Of a DNA stretch of 64,000 nucleotides, positions 11,932-62,788 are shown in pieces (within the stretch, counting starts at the first letter, position 1; the number at the start of each line of letters is the position of its first letter). The DNA comes from Mobula birostris (Eukaryota): assembly GCF_030028105.1 (NCBI RefSeq), contig NC_092396.1, positions 20,605,820-20,669,819 of the forward strand, given 5' to 3'. The position numbers were made by a program, and so were the translations under genes. The notes under the pieces are model-generated. The model did no database searches, was not told the DNA's origin, and worked only from the letters and a program-made list of their open reading frames with translations.

Positions 11932-13289
11932 TTTCTTTGTACGATTAAGCTGAAGAAGAAACAGGCAATACATTTGATTTCAAATGCTGATCGTGGTTTC
12001 TACAACATTCAGGCACGGATTAATGTTCAGCTCTAGATAGACAAAACACTCCCAGTAGTTTAGATGCTATAGTTTAGTGGACATTGTATCTCAGCTGCTG
12101 GAAAGGGTTAGGAGTTCAAATGCCGTTTAGTTCCAGCTGATGTTATTGGAATGATTATGGGAGAAATCCAATTTGTTATAGCGTCCTTGGATGACGCTAA
12201 AGCTGGGGAAAACCAAACTCGGTTGTTATGCAATAACGCCCGCAGGACCCATTCCCCGGTGACAGATGGTGCCTTCAAGAAAGCCGTAAGGGGGGGTGGC
12301 GGGGTTGAGGGGAGTTGGTAAAAACTGACCACTACACCCAGAGCTCAGCTACTACAATGCTCTCATCATAATCATCTGCTCCTGGCCGTCCTGCATTACA
12401 AAATAATTGCAGTAGTTCCCTCCCAACGCAGGACAATAAATATCAGTCGTGCACATACAAACAATACAGACAGGAGCGTCCGCTGTTGTAACCACAACAC
12501 TAACATTTATTTCCCTGGAGTCGGGGAGAGGAAAATCAGGTGGGGCGTTTTGCCCTGGATAGTATTCAATGCTTCCAACTAGAAAACGCATATGCACCCG
12601 TGCATAAAACGAGAACGGGTGTTTGTGTCACGGGTGATCCCACTCCGGGACATATGGTGGCTGAGCTAATGCATGCATGGAACTGTAGTCCATAGTAGGG
12701 GGTGGGGGAAATTTAGAAGGGAAAAAAAATCAATGTGATTGATGAATCAGGAGACTAGGCTTTAGAAACCATGACAAACGAGCACAATACAACACCGCAC
12801 AATAGTTTTGATATTAAAATAGAAAGTGAGTATTCAAAACGCCGCGAAGGTAGTAGATTTGAAGGAGTGGCCATATTCTGAAATGTATGTAAATTTAACA
12901 TCTCAATTCTTTAACTAGTATTTCCCCAGCCCACGGGGATAATATTAATTAATTACAACTTCCCGAGGGGACAGTCTCTCAACTCCCATCTGCTGTAGGA
13001 CCAAACATTTCTTCCAGCAATTTGCAGCATCTTCCATTGTATAGACACACACAACACCGGCGCCCTACCCGCAACCCCCCCCCCAACTCCCCTCCCCACC
13101 TCACCTCCGAAAATTCCACCTCTCCAAAATCATCTCCACCATCATCTACGGAGCTTCAGCTTCCCACTCCCCCCCCCCAACAATCAGAATCACAAAGCAT
13201 TGTTTTCCAAGTTTCGCAGGCATGTGCTTGACCTCCCGTCGGTATCCCCCGCGACTGATCAAATGTTGAATGCTCTGCCAAGGTCCCGC

Positions 13290-14175
13290 NNNNNNNNNNN
13301 NNNNNNNNNNNNNNNNNNNNNNNNNNNNNNNNNNNNNNNNNNNNNNNNNNNNNNNNNNNNNNNNNNNNNNNNNNNNNNNNNNNNNNNNNNNNNNNNNNNN
13401 NNNNNNNNNNNNNNNNNNNNNNNNNNNNNNNNNNNNNNNNNNNNNNNNNNNNNNNNNNNNNNNNNNNNNNNNNNNNNNNNNNNNNNNNNNNNNNNNNNNN
13501 NNNNNNNNNNNNNNNNNNNNNNNNNNNNNNNNNNNNNNNNNNNNNNNNNNNNNNNNNNNNNNNNNNNNNNNNNNNNNNNNNNNNNNNNNNNNNNNNNNNN
13601 NNNNNNNNNNNNNNNNNNNNNNNNNNNNNNNNNNNNNNNNNNNNNNNNNNNNNNNNNNNNNNNNNNNNNNNNNNNNNNNNNNNNNNNNNNNNNNNNNNNN
13701 NNNNNNNNNNNNNNNNNNNNNNNNNNNNNNNNNNNNNNNNNNNNNNNNNNNNNNNNNNNNNNNNNNNNNNNNNNNNNNNNNNNNNNNNNNNNNNNNNNNN
13801 NNNNNNNNNNNNNNACTCACACACACACCGCATACACACACACACCACATACACACACAACACCACAAACACACTCACTCATACACACGCGACANNNNNN
13901 NNNNNNNNNNNNNNNNNNNNNNNNNNNNNNNNNNNNNNNNNNNNNNNNNNNNNNNNNNNNNNNNNNNNNNNNNNNNNNNNNNNNNNNNNNNNNNNNNNNN
14001 NNNNNNNNNNNNNNNNNNNNNNNNNNNNNNNNNNNNNNNNNNNNNNNNNNNNNNNNNNNNNNNNNNNNNNNNNNNNNNNNNNNNNNNNNNNNACTCACAC
14101 ACACACCGCATACACACACACACCACATACACACACAACAACAACACCACAAACACACTCACTCATACACACGCG

Positions 14176-23500: not shown

Positions 23501-26500
23501 GTAACTTCACACACTTCATGACCCCTGACACCTGGAACTTCCACCATACTACTAGTGTCTTGCACAGTGAAGACTGATGCAAAATATTTATTCAGTTTGT
23601 TTGCCATTTTCTTGTCCTCTATTACTACCACTCCAGCGCTGATTCCCAGTGGTCGGATATTCACTCTTGCCTCTCTTTTATACTTCATGTATTTGAAGAA
23701 ACTTTTGGTATCCTCTTTAGTAGTATTGGCTAGCTTACTTTTACTTTTACGTGCTTAATGACATTTTTAGTTGCCTTCTGTTGATTTTTAAATGTTTCCT
23801 AACCCTCCCACTATTTTTTGCTCTATTATATGAGCTCTCTTTGGCTTTTATATTGGCTTTGACTTCTCTTGTTAGCCATGGTTGTGACATCTTTCCTTTA
23901 GAATACTTCTTCCTCTTTGGGATGTATACAGTATATCCTGTGCCTTCTGAGTTGCTTTCAGAAATTCCTGCCATTGCTGCTCTGTCATCATCCCTGCCAG
24001 TGTACTTTTCCAATCAGTTCTGACCAACTCCTCTCTCATGCCTCTGTAATTCCCTTTACTCCATTGTAATACTGACACATCTGACTTTAGCTCTCATTCT
24101 CAGATTTCAGGGTGAATTCGATTATATGATCACTTACCCCTAAGTGTTCTTTTACCTTAAGCTCTCTAATCAATTCTGGTTCATTGTACATCACCCTATC
24201 CAGAATAGCTGATCCCCTAGTGGGCTCAACCATGAGCTGCTCTAAAAAGCCATATTGTAGGCACTCTAGAAGTTCACCCTCCTGGAATCCAGCACCAACC
24301 CAATTTTCCCAATCTACCTGCATATTGAAATCCCCCATGACTATTGTAACATTGCCCTTTTGCTGTGCATCTTCTATCTCCCATTGTAATTTATAGGCCA
24401 CATCCTTACTACTGTTTGGGAGTCTGTATACAACTCCCATCAGGGTCTTTTTACCCTTGCAGTTCCTTAGCTCTATCCACTATGATTCAACACCTTCCAA
24501 CCCTATGTCACCTCTTTCTGATGATTTCACTTTTTACCAACAGGGCAATGCCATACCCTCTGTCTTCCTGCCTGTCCTTTCAATACAACGTGTATTCTTG
24601 GATATTAAGCTCCCAGCTACAATGTTCTTTCAGCCATGATTCATTGATATCTACAACATTATCCCTGCCAATCTGCAACTGTGCTGCAAGTTCATCTGCC
24701 TTATTACATATACTGCGAGCATTCATATATAACACGTTCTTTCCTGTATTCATTCTTTTTGATTTTGTCTGCCGTTTACGTGGCAACTCATCCTGTTGAC
24801 TGCAATTTCGCCCTATCAACAGCCTCTCCTCACTACACATTGCCTCTGTTTATAAACCAGCTACCTCATCTTCAGCACTATTATCCAGCTTTTCTATGAT
24901 ACTACTTGTATTGAAATATATGCAGCTCAGGACACTAGTTGCACCATGTTTAACCTTTTGAATCCTAACTTAGTCTGAGGTTTTATCAACATCTGCCTCC
25001 ACAACCTCTCCACTAACTGTTCTGACACTCTGGTTCCCATTCCACTGAGCTCTAGTTTAAACCCCACAACGCAGCATTAACAAAACTTCCTGCTAAGATA
25101 TTAGTCCCCCTCCAGTTCGGGTGCAAACTGTTCTTTCTGTACAGGTCCCACCTTCCCTGGAAGAGAGCCCAACATTCCAAAACCTTTTATGCCCTCCCTC
25201 CTACACCAACTCCTTTGCCACATATTAAACTGTATAATCTTCCTAGTTCTGGCCTCACTAGCACGTGGCACGGGTAGCAATCCTGAAATCACAATCCTGG
25301 AGGTCCTGCCCTTTAACTTAGCACCTAACTCCCAGAATTCCCTATGCAGAACCTTGTCACTGGTACTCCCCATGTCACTAGTACCTATATGGACCACGAC
25401 TTCTGGTTGTTCACCCTCCCACTTAAGAATGCTGAGGACTTGATCTGAGATATCCCAGACCCTGGCACCCGGAAGGCAACATACCATTCGCGAATCTCGT
25501 TCTCACCCACAGAATCTCCTGTCCACTCCCCTAACTAACGAATCCCCTTTCATCACAGTGTGCCTCTTCCCCCCGAAGAAAAACTAATGTTTTGGAACGC
25601 CAGCTATCTCCAAGCACATCGTCTGAAATTTGGACATCCAATGCTCCTTTCTCATTCAAGTCCTAAGAGTTTTTTTCCTACTGCCATTTGGAAATAACTT
25701 TGTACGGAGAGCAAAAATTCTAGGAGATTCACCACTGGACATTTTACTTAGGGATAAGTAATTGGTGTAACTTGGCTAGCTCAGAACAATTATGTAAAAG
25801 GTCAATGCAAGTCGTTTTTTTTTCTGTTACCTATTCTGTTAACAGTACACTAGTGTATTTGCAGAAACTGTAATTTGAAAAAACTTATCACTCCTCTCCC
25901 CAATATTTTTTGATTTTTGTTTTAAATATTTGGATAATTTTAAACGCAAACAACAGGAATTCTGCAGATGCTGGAAATTCAAGCAACACACATAAAAGTT
26001 GCTGGTCCTGACGAAGGGTCTCGGCCTGAAACGGCGACTGCACCTCTTCCTAGAGATGCTGCCTGGCCTGCTGTGTTCACCAGCAACTTTTATGTGTGTT
26101 ATTTGGATGATTGCTTGGTTGAGATAAGCATTTTATGTGTTGTGACCTGCTCCATTTTGTTTTGTCTTTAGAATGAGGTGGATCGGGTGGTGGTGGTGAT
26201 CCTGGATAAAGAGCATCATCCTGTGGAGCGCTTTGTCTTTGAGATATCTCAACCTCCTCTGCTGTCTGTCAGGTGAAACATTTTCAGTATTCTGTATTCC
26301 TGTACTACTACTGCATGTGACTAAACTATTAATCTTAATCTGAAGCTCGTTACACTTAAGGAAGACAATTCTCCCCATATTCTGAATCTGTCTACATTAC
26401 AAATAGAACATCCTGTGTAATTATTTGGTTAGAACATAATTAGGTTTCTACACATCGTAACCCTAACATGCTTTCTGCACAACCCAATCAAGAAATACAA

Positions 26501-29500: not shown

Positions 29501-32500
29501 GATCAGTGTCTGTGATGCAATTCTGGACACTAACCCTCCAGGTAGACATTTGATTGTAGTGCTTTTGTTGTACATTCACTGTTATAGCAAGCTAAGATGA
29601 CAGAGAATCTGACTGGATTGAATCTAATGTTGGGAGTGAGATCGTTTCTTCTCTAATAGGGAATTTATTTTTTCCCCTTTCTCTCCTGAAGGCATTTAAT
29701 TTTCTTGGGTTTGGTTTCCTGGGTTTCCATTACTTTCCAGAATCTGTAATTAGAATTGAAACCAAGAGATATGTGTGTGTTAGCTAAACTGTTTGGCTAG
29801 TTATTTTCTTGATATAAATTCCCTGAAGTTCCTTCTGACTACGGCACCTAGAGGCCTGCTAATGGTCAAGAAATAACAAAATGATAAACGATAGACCTGT
29901 TAGTCCGATAGCACTTGCTGTGAAAATACTGAAATTAGGAAATTGGTTACAGATAATTGGAAATTTGTAGACAGAGATGACATGCTTTTGTTAAGAGTAT
30001 CTATTTAACAAATCTAATTTGAGACCGTTGTGTCTAGATAACAGTATTTGATTTCCTTGTATTTAATGGGCCATGGCTGTGGCTAATTGTTTTGCTCATG
30101 GATAACTGCATCTTTGACCTCATTTCTTGGATGGGCTAAGTGACTTAGACTACAAGATATAAGAGCAGAGTTAGGCCATTTGGCCCATTTAATCTGCTCC
30201 AGTATTTCATAATGGCTGGTCTATTTCCCTCTCAGCCCCAATCTCCTGCCTTCTCTCCGTTTCTCTTCATGCCCTGACTGATCAAGAATCTATCAACCTG
30301 TGCCTCAAATATACCCAATGACTTGGCCTCCACAGCCACCCGTGGTAATGAATTCCACAGATTCGCCACTCTCTGCTTAAAGAAATTTCTCCTCATTTCC
30401 GTTCTAAACGGACGCCCCTCTATTCTGAGGGCCCTGTCCTCTGGTCTTCGACTCCGCTACCGTAGGAAATATTCTCTCCACATCCACTCTGTCAAGGCCT
30501 TTCACTATTCGATATGTTTCAATGAGATCTCTTCCCCCACCCCACCCCCCAAATTCTTCTGAATTCCAGTGAGTACAGGCCCAGAGCCATCAAATGCTCT
30601 TCATATGACTTGTACCAGTGAATCCATTTCTTGCTTCTGTTACTGGACTCTGAATGGAGCTCAGTGGTGGAACGCAGACATGATGGGAAAACTTTAAAAA
30701 AAAACTGCAAACTGCTGGAAATCTGAAATGAAAACAAAACGCTGGAAAAATTCAGCAGGCTAGGAAAGAGGAAGAGGTAATGTTTCGGATTTAGGACTGT
30801 TCATTAGAACTGATGAGGATTTGGGAAACCCATCTCTGCAATTATGTGGCAGCAAGACTGGTATAAAGTCAGAGGTCAGGATTTCCAACTTGAAAGTGAG
30901 GGAGGAAGAATATTTAAAATTTTATTTTCTTATTTTACTTTGTTTAAATGTTTTTATTTATTATGTCTGGAATGTATTTTAATTACTTTTAAAATTTAAA
31001 ACTTTTCGTAATTGTGGTATTTTAATAGTCTCTGAACATCAGATGTATTGAAACTCCTACAGAGCTTTACAGTCTTTGAGAGGAGCTGAGGCTCTGCCAT
31101 CTACCTGCTGTAAAAATCCGCTGGAGTTTGAGGGCAAGGCCTCGGGTATTGGCTTACCTTCTCTTTGCCAGACCATTCTGGGAGTAGTGAATCCTTGTAA
31201 GCTTGGAATAGGTGTGGGGAAGAGTATGACTGGTGTATGGTTGAATTCAGTGCAATGTGGAAGTTGTTAACACAAAATAAGGGCAAACTAGTTTTGGAGC
31301 AATAGAGGACTGGTAAGGGATGATATAGAGGAGGAATAAATGGGTGATTTTCAAGATGTAAACAGTCTGTCAGGGTTCTGCAAGAATGTACTCTGGGATT
31401 TTGGTTATTTACAATACATTTTATGATGTAGATGAAAGAATAATGTATTAGTTTAAATATGTATGGGAAAGTAAACTGTGAAGCAGATACAGCTTTAAGG
31501 ATGGGTTAAGTGAACAGGAGAAGGTGGTGTTGCAAATTATGATGTTCATCATTTGATAGGCAGACCAGAAATCCAGTGGCCCATTGAGTGCTGATCTGTT
31601 TTAATGTTGTTGGTCTGGGGAGAAAATTACTGAAATACTGGAGGACGGGGAATACAGAAGAAATCATCAAAACTTACCAGCTTGCTGAATGCAGCTGTGG
31701 TGTTTGCATTCACTCAGCCAGTGAAAGTGGAGTTCAGCGTATGAGAACATACAGTAATAATCCCATTTAACCTATTGAGTTAGCACATTTGTTCCCAGGA
31801 ATACATCCTGAGTAATAAGATACTAGTTTAAATGTTAGTGTTCAGTTGGTTTGATGGAGCAGTTGGTTTGGTGTGTGAAACACCTAGGCCCATCAAGTAG
31901 TTGGGAAGGCAACAGCAAGTTCACTTTTGAGAGGTGTTTGTCTACGTATGGGGATGTCTTTCTGCAATGACTACTGTGAGACTTCATTTGGAGCACTATC
32001 TGCATTTTCGTTTCTGTACAAAATTATACCTGGAAATGATACATTTGGATTCACTGAGTTGATCTCTGGGACGTGAAGATTGTCATTTAAGGATTGATAG
32101 AGTAACTTTTATCCATTGGAGTCCTGAATTATAGAGATGATCTCATTGTAACACAAAGGATCTGAGTGGAATTGGCAGGTACGTGGCAAAAAGCTGGGTT
32201 TTTTTGGCACGTAGCTGACAATCTCTCTCAGATCCTTTGGAGTGCCAAGAACTAAGAATCATAGCTTCAGGATAAAGGTTCACTATTTAGTTCTGAGAAG
32301 AGGAAGTCTTCACTCAGGGGGTTGTAAATCTTGGCAGTTTATATCAGTGGAAAACGGTTGTTCAGTTGAGTGCAATCAAGACAGATTTTAAAATATTTTT
32401 AGTTGAGAGGTTTTTTTTAAAAAAGCAAATGATTGGGCAGGAGAGAGCACCAGTGCTGCTTTTTGGATTATTGATTTTGATTTTTTATTCGTAACTTTTG

Positions 32501-39176: not shown

Positions 39177-41331
39177 TTCTATCTCCCTTACCATAGCATT
39201 GGAGAGGGTTAGGAACAGACAGGTTAGGAAAGCAGTTAATTGGAGTAAGGGGAAATACGAGGCCTACAGGGACGAGGTCCAGCACCTGGCCGTGTGGTGT
39301 GCTGACAACAACCTGGCCCTTAACACCCAGAAGATCAAGGACCAAGGAGATCATTGTGGATTTCAGGCATGCTAGGAGCCACACTCACATCCCCATCTAT
39401 ATCAACGGAGCTGTAGTGGAGCATGTATCAAGCTTCAAATTCCTTGGTGTCCACATTTCTGAGGATCACACCTGGTCCCTGAACTCCTCCATCCTGGTCA
39501 AAAAGGCACTACTGCGCCTTTATTTCCTGTGGAGCATCAAGAAAGCTCACCTCTGTCCCAGGATACTGACGGACTTTTACCACTGTACCATTGAGAGCAT
39601 ACTCACTGTCACAAAAAACAGTGGGTCAATTGTTTAAGAAAAATAACAAGATGGCTTGAGTCACAAAACTAGATTGAGGTGCTTTCATTTACCTCAAAAC
39701 AATACAAAAGCTGGAAAAAAATATATATATAATCCACTCTCAGACTAAACACAAAAGAAAACTAACCCCAAAACCTTGGTAACCTGAGGCTTATAACTGC
39801 TAAGCCCCTCCTCCTAGACCAACCAAAAGCTAATTAACTCAATTATCCAATTAAAGATGGTATCTTCCACCACCAGCACACCTGTGCAGGTTGCTGCTGC
39901 CTCTATATGAGACAGCTCCGTTCAGCAGCTCTGTTTCTGTTACTGCTGGGGATGAGTATTTTACCGAGTGTGCCATGTGCCACCCATAGTCAGTGACGAG
40001 CCTTCGTCACATTACCTCCCTCCTCTCCTGCAGCGGCAATGTTTGGCAGTCTTGACAGGAAGTCCGCTGTGATGTTCTCCTTGCCTGATTTGTGCCGCAC
40101 ACAGAACCTGAAAGGTTGAAGTTCCAGGTACCACCTAGTCACCCTGGCATTCCGATCCTTCATTGTCTGGATCTAAGTCAGGGCTCTGTGGTCTGTCTGG
40201 AGGTCAAACTCCCTCCCAAGAAGGTAGTACCTGAGGCTGTCCAACGCCCACTTGATTGCCAGACACTCCTCCTCGATTGTGGAGTACCAGGTTTCACAGG
40301 GCAGAAGTTTCCTGCTGAGATATAACACAGGATGTTCCTCACCTGGCTCTCCCTGAGCCAGTACTGCCCCGATGCCTACATCTGAGGCATCCACCTGCAC
40401 CAGGAAGCGGTGTTCAAAGTCAGGACTCTGCAACACAGGGGAAGAGCACAATTTCTCCTTCAGGCCCTGGAAAGCACTTTCACACTCCTCTCTCCATTCC
40501 ACAGGATTTCGGGCCAACTTGTAGGTGAGGTTGGTCAATGGGGCTGCCAGGGTTGAAAAGTGAGGGATGAACCGTTGGTACCAGCCCACTAGGCCAAGAA
40601 GAGACCGGACCTGGGTCTTGGTACGGGGCCTGGGGCTGTTCAGAATGGCCTCAACTTTATCCACCTGAGGCCAGACTTCTCCTCTCCCCAACTGATAGCC
40701 CAGGTAGCAGGTTTCCTGCCTGGCCCACTCACATTTCTGCAGGTTGAGTGTAAGTCCTGCTGCATTGATTGCACCTAGGACTCAACAGAGGTGCTCCAGA
40801 TGTCAGGCTAAAAATAACCACATCATCCAAATAGGCGGCACCGCAGTCCTCACAACCTTGTAGCACTCTGTCCATAAGCCTCTGGAATGTGGCTGGGGCA
40901 CCATGTAAGCCAAAGGGTGTCACCGTGAACTTAACGAGGCCTACAGGGGTCCTGAATGCAGTGAGGGGCTGGGACTGGCTCTCCAGGGGGACCTGCCAAT
41001 ACCCCTTGCAGAGGTCCAAGATGGTGATGTAGTTGGCTCTCCCAATCCTCTCCAGCAGGTCCTCAATCTGGGGCATCAGGTAGGCATCGAAAAATGAGAT
41101 GGCATTCAGTTTCCTAAAGTGAATGCAAATGCGAAGAGTTCAATTCGTCTCTGGCACAATGACAATAGGTCCGCTTGATGCTGGAGCTGGGAGTCATCGA
41201 ACCGTCTGAAAGTGAGTGGAGTAGCCCTATTGTCATTGTGCCAAAGAAGAATGGAACTCTTCGCATTTGCATTGACTTTAGGAAGCTGAATGCCATCTCA
41301 TTTTTCGATGCCTACCTGATGCCCTGAATTG

Positions 41332-41381
41332 AGGCTCCAGTCTCCAAGGAGGTGTGGGTTCGAATCCCACCGCTGCCACCA
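41332..41381 (+). pseudogene. Reverse-transcribed 3' ~50 nt of tRNA-Leu including CCA (extended primer-binding site)
   Basis: AGGCTCCAGTCTCcaaGGAGGtGTGGGTTCGAATCCCACCGCTGCCA-CCA matches vertebrate tRNA-Leu(AAG/TAG) from the anticodon loop to the CCA end. Confidence 0.85.
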
Positions 41382-41550
41382 TATGTCACAAAAAACTGTG
41401 GGTTAATTGTTTAAGAAAAATAACAAGATAGCTTGAGTCACAAAACTAGATTGAGGTGCTTTTATTTATCTCAAAACAAGACAAAAACTGGAAAAAAAAC
41501 ACAATATACATCCACCCTCAGACTAAACACAAAAGAAAACTAACCCCAAA

Positions 41551-41678
41551 GCCTGCCTGCCTGTCTGTACCTTGTTTTACAGCAGTTGGCATCCAGCTTA
41601 ATGGTGCATTACCGCCACCCTCTGCTCCAGAATGTGCACTAGACATACAGTCTAAATCCCTTCACCCAATCGCACATG

Positions 41679-41730
<52 letters not shown>

Positions 41731-42393
41731 AACCAACACTTTACCCTCCCATCTTTGACCATCCTAGTATCCTATTCCTGTTTATTCATCATATTCTATA
41801 AAAAACCCCTGTACCCCTTAAAAATGCCAAAAATACCCAGACTTGTGCTCTCTCACCCATGCCCAGCAACCCTTTTAATGTGAATTCCTGCATCCCCAAC
41901 TCCCTTAATTTATTTCTCATCATCTCTCTCTGTATCCTATACTTCCTGCAACACAAAACTACATGTTCTACTGACTCCTCTTCCTGACATTCCTCACACA
42001 ATCCTGTCTGGTGTTTCCCTATCATTTTCAATGCCCCAGCCTTAACCTAGTCCACACAATTTCCTCTCTTCTGTTTCCATTACCTACCCTAGTAACTGCA
42101 ACACTCTTTTGTATTTGATATAAATGCCTCCCTTTCCCCTCCCTGTCCCATCTTTCTTGCCACATTCAGTTGACTTTTTCCCAGATTACACACTTAACCT
42201 CTGCTTTACTGATACTAATGTGCATTTCCACATTTTCTTTCTTTAACACCCNNNNNNNNNNNNNNNNNNNNNNNNNNNNNNNNNNNNNNNNNNNNNNNNN
42301 NNNNNNNNNNNNNNNNNNNNNNNNNNNNNNNNNNNNNNNNNNNNNNNNNNNNNNNNNNNNNNNNNNNNNNNNNNNNNNNNNNNNNNNNNNNNN
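41551..42393 (-). mobile_element. I-group (Nimb-like) LINE 3' fragment inserted in the 5' LTR; 5' junction lies in an N-gap; contains a (TA)n/(CA)n microsatellite
   Basis: C-terminal CCHC GLCEECQEEESVEHVVLCC..FLRGTG; 3' UTR ggtggcggtaatgcacc; LTR sequence resumes at 42394. Confidence 0.7.
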
Positions 42394-43135
42394 AACCCAT
42401 AGAAACTTGGTAACCTGAGGCTTATAACTACTAAGCCCCTCCCTCTAGACCAACCGAAAGCTAATTAACTCAATTATCCAATTAGAGATGGTATCTTCCA
42501 CCATCAGCACATCTGTGCAGGTTGCTGCTGCCTCTGTATGAGACAGCTCCATGCAGCAGCTCTGTTTCTATTACTGCTGGGGATGAGTATTTTACCGAGT
42601 GCGCCATGTGCCGTCCGTAGTCAGTGATGAGCCTTCGTCACACTCACCAATTGCATTTCAGTGTGGTATGGCAATTGTCCTGTATCGGACCGCAAAGCAC
42701 TCCAGCGTGTGGTGAAAACAGCCCAGCGGATTATCGGCACCCAATTGCCCACCATTGAGAATATCTACCATAAACGCTGCCTGGGCAGGGCGGAAAGCAT
42801 TATCAAGGATGCATCTCACCCTAACCATGGACTTTTTACTCTCCTCCCATCCGGTAGGCGCTACAGGAGCCTCCGCTCTCGCACCAGCAGGCACAGGAGG
42901 AGCTTCTTCCCTGAGGCTGTGACCCTGCTGAACCTCTCATCACAGCACTAAGCAGTATTGCATCCGTATTGTACTGTCTCAGTACTTTTATATTTGTGTG
43001 CTGTAGCACTTTTTTATTCGCAGTTATTTTGTAAATAACACTATTCTTTGCATTTCTGGTCAGATGCTAAACGCATTTTATTGGCTTTGTATCTGTCCTC
43101 GGCACAATGACAATAAAGTTGAATCTAATCTAATC

Positions 43136-44627: not shown

Positions 44628-62788
<18,161 letters not shown>

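Follow-up and report, generated by a model that had tools for sequence, protein, structure and literature searches.

Primer sites extended into tRNA-Leu in a vertebrate Gypsy family, probably by strong-stop overshoot past position 58

How does roughly half of a mature tRNA come to lie against the long terminal repeat (LTR) of a retrotransposon, where a primer-binding site of 18 nt is usual? The question arises in a 64-kb window of the Mobula birostris genome (the window being the whole stretch of DNA analysed), whose plus strand carries the 3' part of a tRNA-Leu as far as ACCA at 41381, followed by TA at 41382-41383 and the LTR edge at 41384. An earlier note on this DNA had placed a mature tRNA-Leu 3' half with CCA 2 nt (TA) from this edge, and the placement holds: from position 38 to 73 the window is identical to host gene L050 at 42 of 44 letters (differences at 48 and 67), and the gene carries no genomic CCA. 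The match to tRNA-Leu also extends past 18 nt, as the note's reading demanded. In all, 47 nt (41335-41381, tRNA positions 38-76) are necessarily tRNA-derived, 29 letters more than the usual site. The start at 41332 given by the note does not stand, as 41324-41334 fits both tRNA positions 27-37 and the element's own reverse transcriptase (RT) sequence, which leaves the start undefined.

Host genes for tRNA-Leu(AAG) and tRNA-Leu(TAG) were found by pattern search, many of them in arrays with tRNA-Thr. The variable loop CAAG, which the note had set against TTCG as a difference to be checked, is present in 13 of the 27 host Leu genes counted, all 13 with A67, and therefore represents a real host isodecoder rather than damage. 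Neither ARAGORN nor Rfam finds a tRNA in the 64-kb window, where Rfam returns just sub-threshold miRNA-like matches on a microsatellite and on the RT inverted repeat. Reversed-pattern controls gave 0 matches genome-wide, indicating that the tRNA and LTR-edge matches are not due to chance. The arrays of tRNA-Leu and tRNA-Thr (L046-L069) lie at C34:15.57-16.32 Mb, C4:116.5-117.0 Mb, C13:29.6 Mb and C3:2.9-3.0 Mb, and their variable loop is very variable; one gene, L154, has a CAG anticodon in the AAG-type body.

Self-comparison of the window pairs the LTR edge at 41384 with 39607, and 42403-42642 with 39772-40011. A Gypsy element spans 39607-42642 on the minus strand, bounded by the 5-bp target-site duplication (TSD) CTCAC; because the element lies on the minus strand, the plus-strand tRNA-Leu sequence has the normal orientation of a primer site. 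Read from its 5' end, the element has a split 5' LTR, the TA spacer and the 18-nt primer site, which continues into tRNA 58 to 38; then come 168 nt of RT in inverted orientation, RT and RNase H in sense, the polypurine tract and the 3' LTR, with no gag, protease region or integrase in this deleted copy. The 405-bp LTR of the earlier note exists, but it is the 3' LTR; the one beside the tRNA piece is the 5' LTR, broken by about 850 nt. The features are as follows:

39602-39606, no strand: TSD CTCAC, left copy; the insertion breaks a LINE reading frame.
39607-40011, minus strand: 3' LTR, 405 bp, unbroken, from LTR pairing.
40012-40031, minus strand: polypurine tract adjoining the 3' LTR, read from the sequence.
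40012-41169, minus strand: sense 3' part of pol, with broken RT and RNase H (Pfam RVT_1, 4.7e-19; RT_RNaseH_2, 5.5e-34); maps to natural copies L071 and L077.
41167-41334, plus strand: inverted 168-nt RT piece, antisense to the element, overlapping the sense part by 3 nt (41167-41169) and giving rise to inverted repeat I2 (109 nt); its ends at 41167 and 41334 are loose.
41324-41334, plus strand: block common to the element's RT site and tRNA-Leu 27-37, counting A34 (inosine) as G; it likely provided the homology for landing, and its letters fit either source.
41335-41363, plus strand: tRNA-Leu 38-58, comprising the 3' side of the anticodon stem, the CAAG variable arm and the T arm with B box, A at 58; the extension past the normal primer site.
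41364-41381, minus strand: primer-binding site of the ordinary 18 nt, matching tRNA-Leu 59-76, CCA included, and having G at 67, from family comparison and host tRNA genes.
41382-41383, no strand: TA spacer, as in ordinary family copies, from family comparison.
41384-42642, minus strand: 5' LTR, interrupted by about 850 nt that were inserted later; across the 355 sites of its two matched parts, 24 disagree with the 3' LTR.
42643-42647, no strand: TSD CTCAC, right copy, from sequence comparison.

A SCAN-like gag domain (PF02023, 2.4e-25), missing from the deleted window copy, is present in natural copy L077, and the near-full natural copies have the domain order SCAN, integrase, RT, RNase H (Integrase_H2C2 and rve before RVT_1; RNase H adjoins the 3' LTR). 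Gmr1-like elements likewise have their integrase upstream of RT. Judged by its LTR pair, TSD, primer site, polypurine tract, SCAN gag and integrase-before-RT order, the window family appears to resemble Gmr1-like Ty3/Gypsy elements, to which the accessible part of PMC4592553 links SCAN-like gag. The two share the order SCAN, integrase, RT, RNase H, and no tRNA overshoot is described for Gmr1-like elements in the accessible text of the literature searched. The insert in the 5' LTR (41550-42400) ends in a TA/CA microsatellite and holds a CCHC-type frame at 41789-42046, which we take to be like a LINE 3' end. Over 245 bp it matches, at 95%, sequence inserted into the 3' LTR of L071, and related sequence is present in L075; the insert is possibly a microsatellite-targeting element.

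The junction between tRNA and RT sequence is unique to the window. Of 96 candidates for 41170-41345, 40 were scored; they yielded 42 matches, and the window alone runs past 41334. A single public DNA sample, sequenced in runs X1 and X3, yields two 88-nt contigs that bridge 41297-41384 with 2 differences, which argues against an assembly error, although the sample may share its origin with the assembly. No RNA run carrying the junction is listed by the sequencing-run search, the best sharing at most 0.28.

The landing site is informative about where copying of the tRNA ended. With A34 read as G, tRNA 29-37 is identical to the RT site where the inverted piece starts, and 27-28 fit as well; this 9-mer occurs at most once per natural copy, in 4 of 7 copies and on the sense strand only. 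At tRNA 38-43 the window has no homology to the landing site. Among 17 family copies with the RT landing site, 13 show two CpG-variant forms able to explain the window letters without a tRNA, so that 41324-41334 can be assigned to neither source and the tRNA end falls anywhere in 27-38. Since the cDNA pairs with the 29-37 look-alike only after copying beyond 37, the window copy probably passed G37. The inverted orientation of the RT piece indicates a sense-strand template, most simply genomic RNA, and the return to sense occurred at the 3-nt overlap (41167-41169). A stricter reading, in which 41324-41334 must be tRNA-derived through a stop at m2,2G26 with an end at 26/27, was dropped, as family variation explains these letters without a tRNA.

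The earlier note had proposed measuring primer-site length across the LTR copies, and we did so with a 26-nt pattern that covers the primer site and LTR edge and is blind to sequence past the primer site. It returned 83 sites, all of which were read, and its reversed control returned 0. An automatic LTR-edge test assigned 49 sites to the window family, and 3 more added by their leader bring the total to 52. Classed by eye, these are 25 ordinary sites, 16 sites in which an 18-nt site is joined to the wrong place and 11 tRNA-extended sites, against 0 extended among 31 sites of two sister families (Fisher P=0.0055, with the sisters fitting the pattern less well and being undersampled). The extended copies represent 9 junctions, the window plus 10 further copies at 8 others, and their isodecoders are four Leu loop types with a clear or near host gene match, plus Thr. 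Every one of the 11 has A at position 58 and its CCA end at the exact place of the primer site with the family's TA spacer. A wider pattern found one extended copy in another LTR family, L150 (C16:44059223), with Leu sequence to the variable arm; in L206 (C1:46618107), of a further LTR family, a Thr extension to about 38-41 is joined to RT-like sequence.

Two other features of the census are recorded here. In many family copies (L072, L081, L090, L117, L121, L133, L142, L146-L149) there are fold-back inversions, or the primer site is joined at spots that recur; in L072 two 5' ends face each other. The 72 non-extended primer sites have A at 67 in 19 cases and T at 66 in 6, and CpG decay alone would produce counts much like these; array-type A67 tRNAs may prime ordinary copies too.

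Six of the 11 extended copies, at 4 of the 9 junctions, end exactly at 38, beside m1G37. L081 and L086 have an inverted partner at the same landing site with different isodecoders; L084 and L085 have a sense partner at the same landing site with the same isodecoder and may be one event. These four and L088, which also ends at 38, share 38-43/44 with their landing sites. In L082, tRNA 38-39 is kept against a mismatching site before element sequence begins, which fixes its end at 38. L087 ends ambiguously at 35-38, and the four copies not ending at 38 are the window, L142, L089 and L083. L089 (291-815) consists of a single LTR, primer site and tRNA to 30/29, directly followed by an exact 5-bp TSD, with mismatches at 37 and 38; L083 (391-850) is similar, with an end near 42-44 and one mismatch in its 5-bp TSD. 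Both have the look of strong-stop DNA that integrated directly, one of its ends not being an LTR.

We consider it likely that the window holds an integrated, deleted Gypsy copy whose primer site runs 29 letters into tRNA-Leu through strong-stop overshoot of m1A58, rescued by template jumps at short homologies; the order of the jumps is reconstructed from one end product. RT would first copy a tRNA without m1A58. The overshoot would then be unable to pair with the minus-strand primer site, and its 3' end would seek another partner. In most siblings RT would pause at 38, before m1G37, and the end would use the 6-7-nt sequence 38-43/44. In the window, 37 would be passed, and the end would pair with the 9-11-nt anticodon-loop look-alike that lies within RT on a sense template; from this template, probably the genomic RNA, 168 nt would be copied backwards. 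A jump at 3 nt of homology to minus-strand DNA, completion and insertion by integrase would follow. The copied tRNA may be a second one, reached by a hop at the 58 stop, and not the primer itself, the two being about evenly balanced for the window.

The modifications invoked have some background. In the accessible part of PMC5066629, human tRNA-Leu isodecoders carry m1A58, m1G37 and m2,2G26, with inosine (I34) in the AAG types, and m1G37 stops RT. For zebrafish, the accessible part of PMC11417395 reports m1G37 in many tRNAs and describes the array-encoded tRNAs as the maternal set. Read-through of m1A usually leaves mismatches (PMC4787781, accessible part); with A58 in 11 of 11 extended copies, unmethylated templates are thus the likelier source, and the constant A58 without misreading would be compatible with a copied tRNA lacking m1A58. 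The peak at 38 (4 of 9 junctions) has P=4.9e-5 unweighted and P=0.013 when weighted for landing-site supply. Across seven natural copies no landing word is commoner than the hexamer 38-43 (11.3% of sites versus 2.6% if uniform), so the peak is just moderately significant at n=9 junctions. It lends support, not proof, to a putative stop at m1G37 in the siblings. For the window, the earlier note had put the block at m1G37; there it probably did not act, as the sole landing homology is at tRNA 27/29-37.

For the window, a stop at m1G37 would mean that the end at 38 joined the RT region without homology. The tRNA-unique letters do end exactly at 38 (41335), 41324-41334 is wholly explicable by the element and its CpG-decay variation among copies, and six siblings end at 38. 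We nevertheless regard this as improbable: the landing site lacks homology to 38-43 while fully matching 29-37 if A34 is read as G, the 9-mer is rare, such a match right beyond the junction is improbable by chance, and L089 shows that 37 is passable. Slightly less probable still is a template consisting of a 3' tRNA half already cut by an anticodon-loop nuclease, in which case an end near 38 would be the end of the template. That would account for the clustering of ends in or beside the anticodon loop and would force a jump, but the ends vary (43/44, 38, 35-38, 30, 27-37), three copies traverse the loop, and the cluster at 38 lies exactly 3' of G37, as in the RT-stop data of the accessible part of PMC5066629.

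The earlier note had offered a choice between one aberrant cycle and a family that stably carries a half-tRNA. The choice was wrongly posed, since the window junction is unique yet the type of event recurs at 9 junctions without clustering. Mean 5' LTR identity is 0.914 between extended copies (55 pairs), 0.915 between ordinary copies (188) and 0.909 between the two classes (216); L084 and L085 are 0.93 identical (60th percentile), and L081 and L086 0.90 (29th). On a tree of 26 of 49 rows and 219 columns (23 rows were too short and omitted), the 8 extended rows require 6 changes versus 7.1 with shuffled labels. The tree is an unresolved star without a well-supported branch, so independent origins cannot be proved by it alone, and the different junctions and isodecoders carry the argument. 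Retention of the half-tRNA by an amplified subfamily, on account of a B box that attracts TFIIIC or Pol III, is highly improbable and largely refuted for the window family. The B box is intact in the window, L084 and L085 share junction and isodecoder, and a separate Thr-primed family does keep a half-tRNA piece; against this, the window junction was found once (among the 42 matches, the window alone passes 41334), the nine junctions differ and do not cluster, there is no A box, and the B box of several siblings shows CpG decay. A stable half-tRNA family thus exists, but as that Thr-primed family and not as the window's.

Equally far-fetched is an independent tRNA retrocopy or SINE beside the LTR, or recombination of a tRNA gene with the primer site after insertion: genomic tRNA-Leu arrays do have 15-nt identity to the primer site and LINEs are abundant in the window, but the segment has no TSD, tail, A box or SINE body of its own, its flanks are RT sequence and LTR spacer alone, all 11 copies have their CCA end precisely where the primer site belongs, together with the TA spacer, ends cluster at 38, and the 5' half and gene flank that recombination would import are seen in 0/11 copies, all in keeping with the earlier note's view that mature tRNA-Leu was copied past position 58.

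Strong-stop overshoot leaves one letter of the window unaccounted for. Its primer site has G67, the element's usual letter, while the CAAG genes all have A67, so simple read-through of one CAAG tRNA does not explain it. A related hybrid is L142 (608-655), in which a Leu-type 18-nt primer site is followed by tRNA-Thr(AGU) 36-58, with 30-35 common to the landing site if A34 is read as G. At several of its 18 positions the Leu primer site does not match tRNA-Thr (59-64 are shared), which would make that tRNA a poor primer for the site. Both the window and L142 are explained in one round if the finished 18-nt end hopped onto a second tRNA, L142 being the stronger case. Alternatives to the hop are that the minus-strand primer site served as the source of a repair, that a further transposition round followed, that the window acquired a point mutation, or that a Thr-family template was the donor for L142.

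That family, of LTR elements with a tRNA-Thr primer site, was reached by searching with the Thr extension. An extension-blind pattern gave 34 sites, all read, of which 32 belong to one group of short elements (L168-L197, L198-L209; on C1, C4, C5, C6, C7, C17, C19, C28, C29 and C34); no autonomous partner was found for them. Behind the primer site, all 32 have tRNA-Thr 32-45 (11-14 of 14 matches), with G at 34. Five sites hold the whole of 32-76, a 45-nt half-tRNA, 3 have T-loop remnants and 24 lack 46-58, a segment flanked by two ATCC repeats; 4 sites have G at 58. As 20 of the 24 short forms appear to be passive copies of one insertion, about 13 insertions remain (5 long, 3 remnant, 5 short), and both long and short forms occur with each of two leader types. 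The 20 near-identical sites (C17, C4456, C4601) were considered as young transpositions and rejected: two that were examined match each other at 93% across more than 5 kb, flanking sequence included, yet the LTRs within each are just 81-86% alike.

Transfer RNA-Thr carries m3C32, and Ty1 makes an extra primer contact. The Thr-family piece may serve as a rescue pad or, as in Ty1, as one more contact with the primer, or it may be a neutral fossil of a founding overshoot. We hold only tentatively, with the balance leaning somewhat against it, a wider reading in which overshoot would be a routine heritable route in vertebrate Gypsy elements. It would include a second-tRNA hop at m1A58 (L142 and G67 of the window), and its ends would map germline modifications (38 for m1G37, 32/33 for m3C32, G for I34). 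One product would have founded the Thr family with a landing pad that rescues overshoot and toggles between 45 nt and 32 nt.

Deletions by mis-aimed plus-strand transfer were reportedly described in retroviral vectors by Pulsinelli and Temin in 1991. There, as in 16 of the 52 family sites, each with an 18-nt site, the primer site is joined to a wrong internal site; the extended family copies differ in retaining 20-47 extra tRNA letters and in having a partner that is often inverted. Colicelli and Goff are said to have found, in 1986, a cloned MLV circle with a tRNA between its LTRs.

The closest biochemical likeness is to the over-extended plus-strand strong-stop products P3-P5 of HIV-1. In the accessible part of PMC13191261, HIV RT makes minor products ending at 55, at 54 and at the modified base 37, of which only those to 54 are said to work; longer products "cannot be integrated" according to that of PMC8599865, with which the accessible part of PMC11251516 agrees. 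The window shows what defines such a product, an unbroken copy of a CCA-tRNA from 76 past 58 at the primer site. Both pass m1A58, and HIV can stop at ms2t6A37 of tRNA-Lys3 (accessible parts of PMC13191261 and PMC8599865). In those sources the HIV-1 products are minor, made in vitro and a dead end past 54, whereas in the window family they are fixed in a vertebrate genome, at 11 of 52 sites, with tRNAs of the m1G37 type. Lentiviruses rescue overshoot with a fixed primer over-extension sequence of about 4 nt (to 54/55; accessible parts of PMC13191261 and PMC8599865). The window family has none, the primer site of its 25 ordinary copies leading straight into a non-tRNA leader, whereas the Thr-primed family has a 14-nt match to 32-45.

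Two other tRNA associations differ from the window. Helenus and TRIMp3 have a tRNA-like promoter inside both LTRs (Kojima 2024, PMC10886601, accessible part). The window's piece is a single antisense 3' half that ends in CCA, runs on unbroken from the primer site and lies outside the LTR; it is present once, and ARAGORN calls no tRNA in the window. In the half-tRNA priming of Copia/Ty5, the primer site corresponds to the anticodon loop of a tRNA that is 3'-truncated and lacks CCA (same part of PMC10886601), whereas ordinary family copies have an 18-nt CCA-end site. Genomic LTR copies with tRNA extensions are not reported in the literature searched, which was largely open-access main text from 2000 onwards; the accessible parts of bioRxiv 2025.05.12.650695 and PMC7472051 add nothing further on them. 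The chemistry has in vitro precedent; the frequency, the fixation, the Leu/Thr hybrid and the Thr-primed family are what would surprise a specialist.

The family copies provide fixed genomic examples, at about one in five primer sites, of products held unable to transfer or integrate past position 54 (accessible parts of PMC8599865 and PMC13191261). Unlike an 18-nt site, the extensions identify which tRNA isodecoders the germline actually uses, and from the points where they end a DNA record of tRNA modifications and RT stops would be available in a species without tRNA-seq. Overshoot is also a simple source for tRNA pieces in LTR elements, and one family kept such a piece. The test can be applied cheaply to any assembled genome. 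Elsewhere in the window are an 8-bp tandem array and several inverted repeats (13258-13900; 25977-26108; 32154-32239; 47472-47718 with 55916-56169), unrelated to the tRNA finding.
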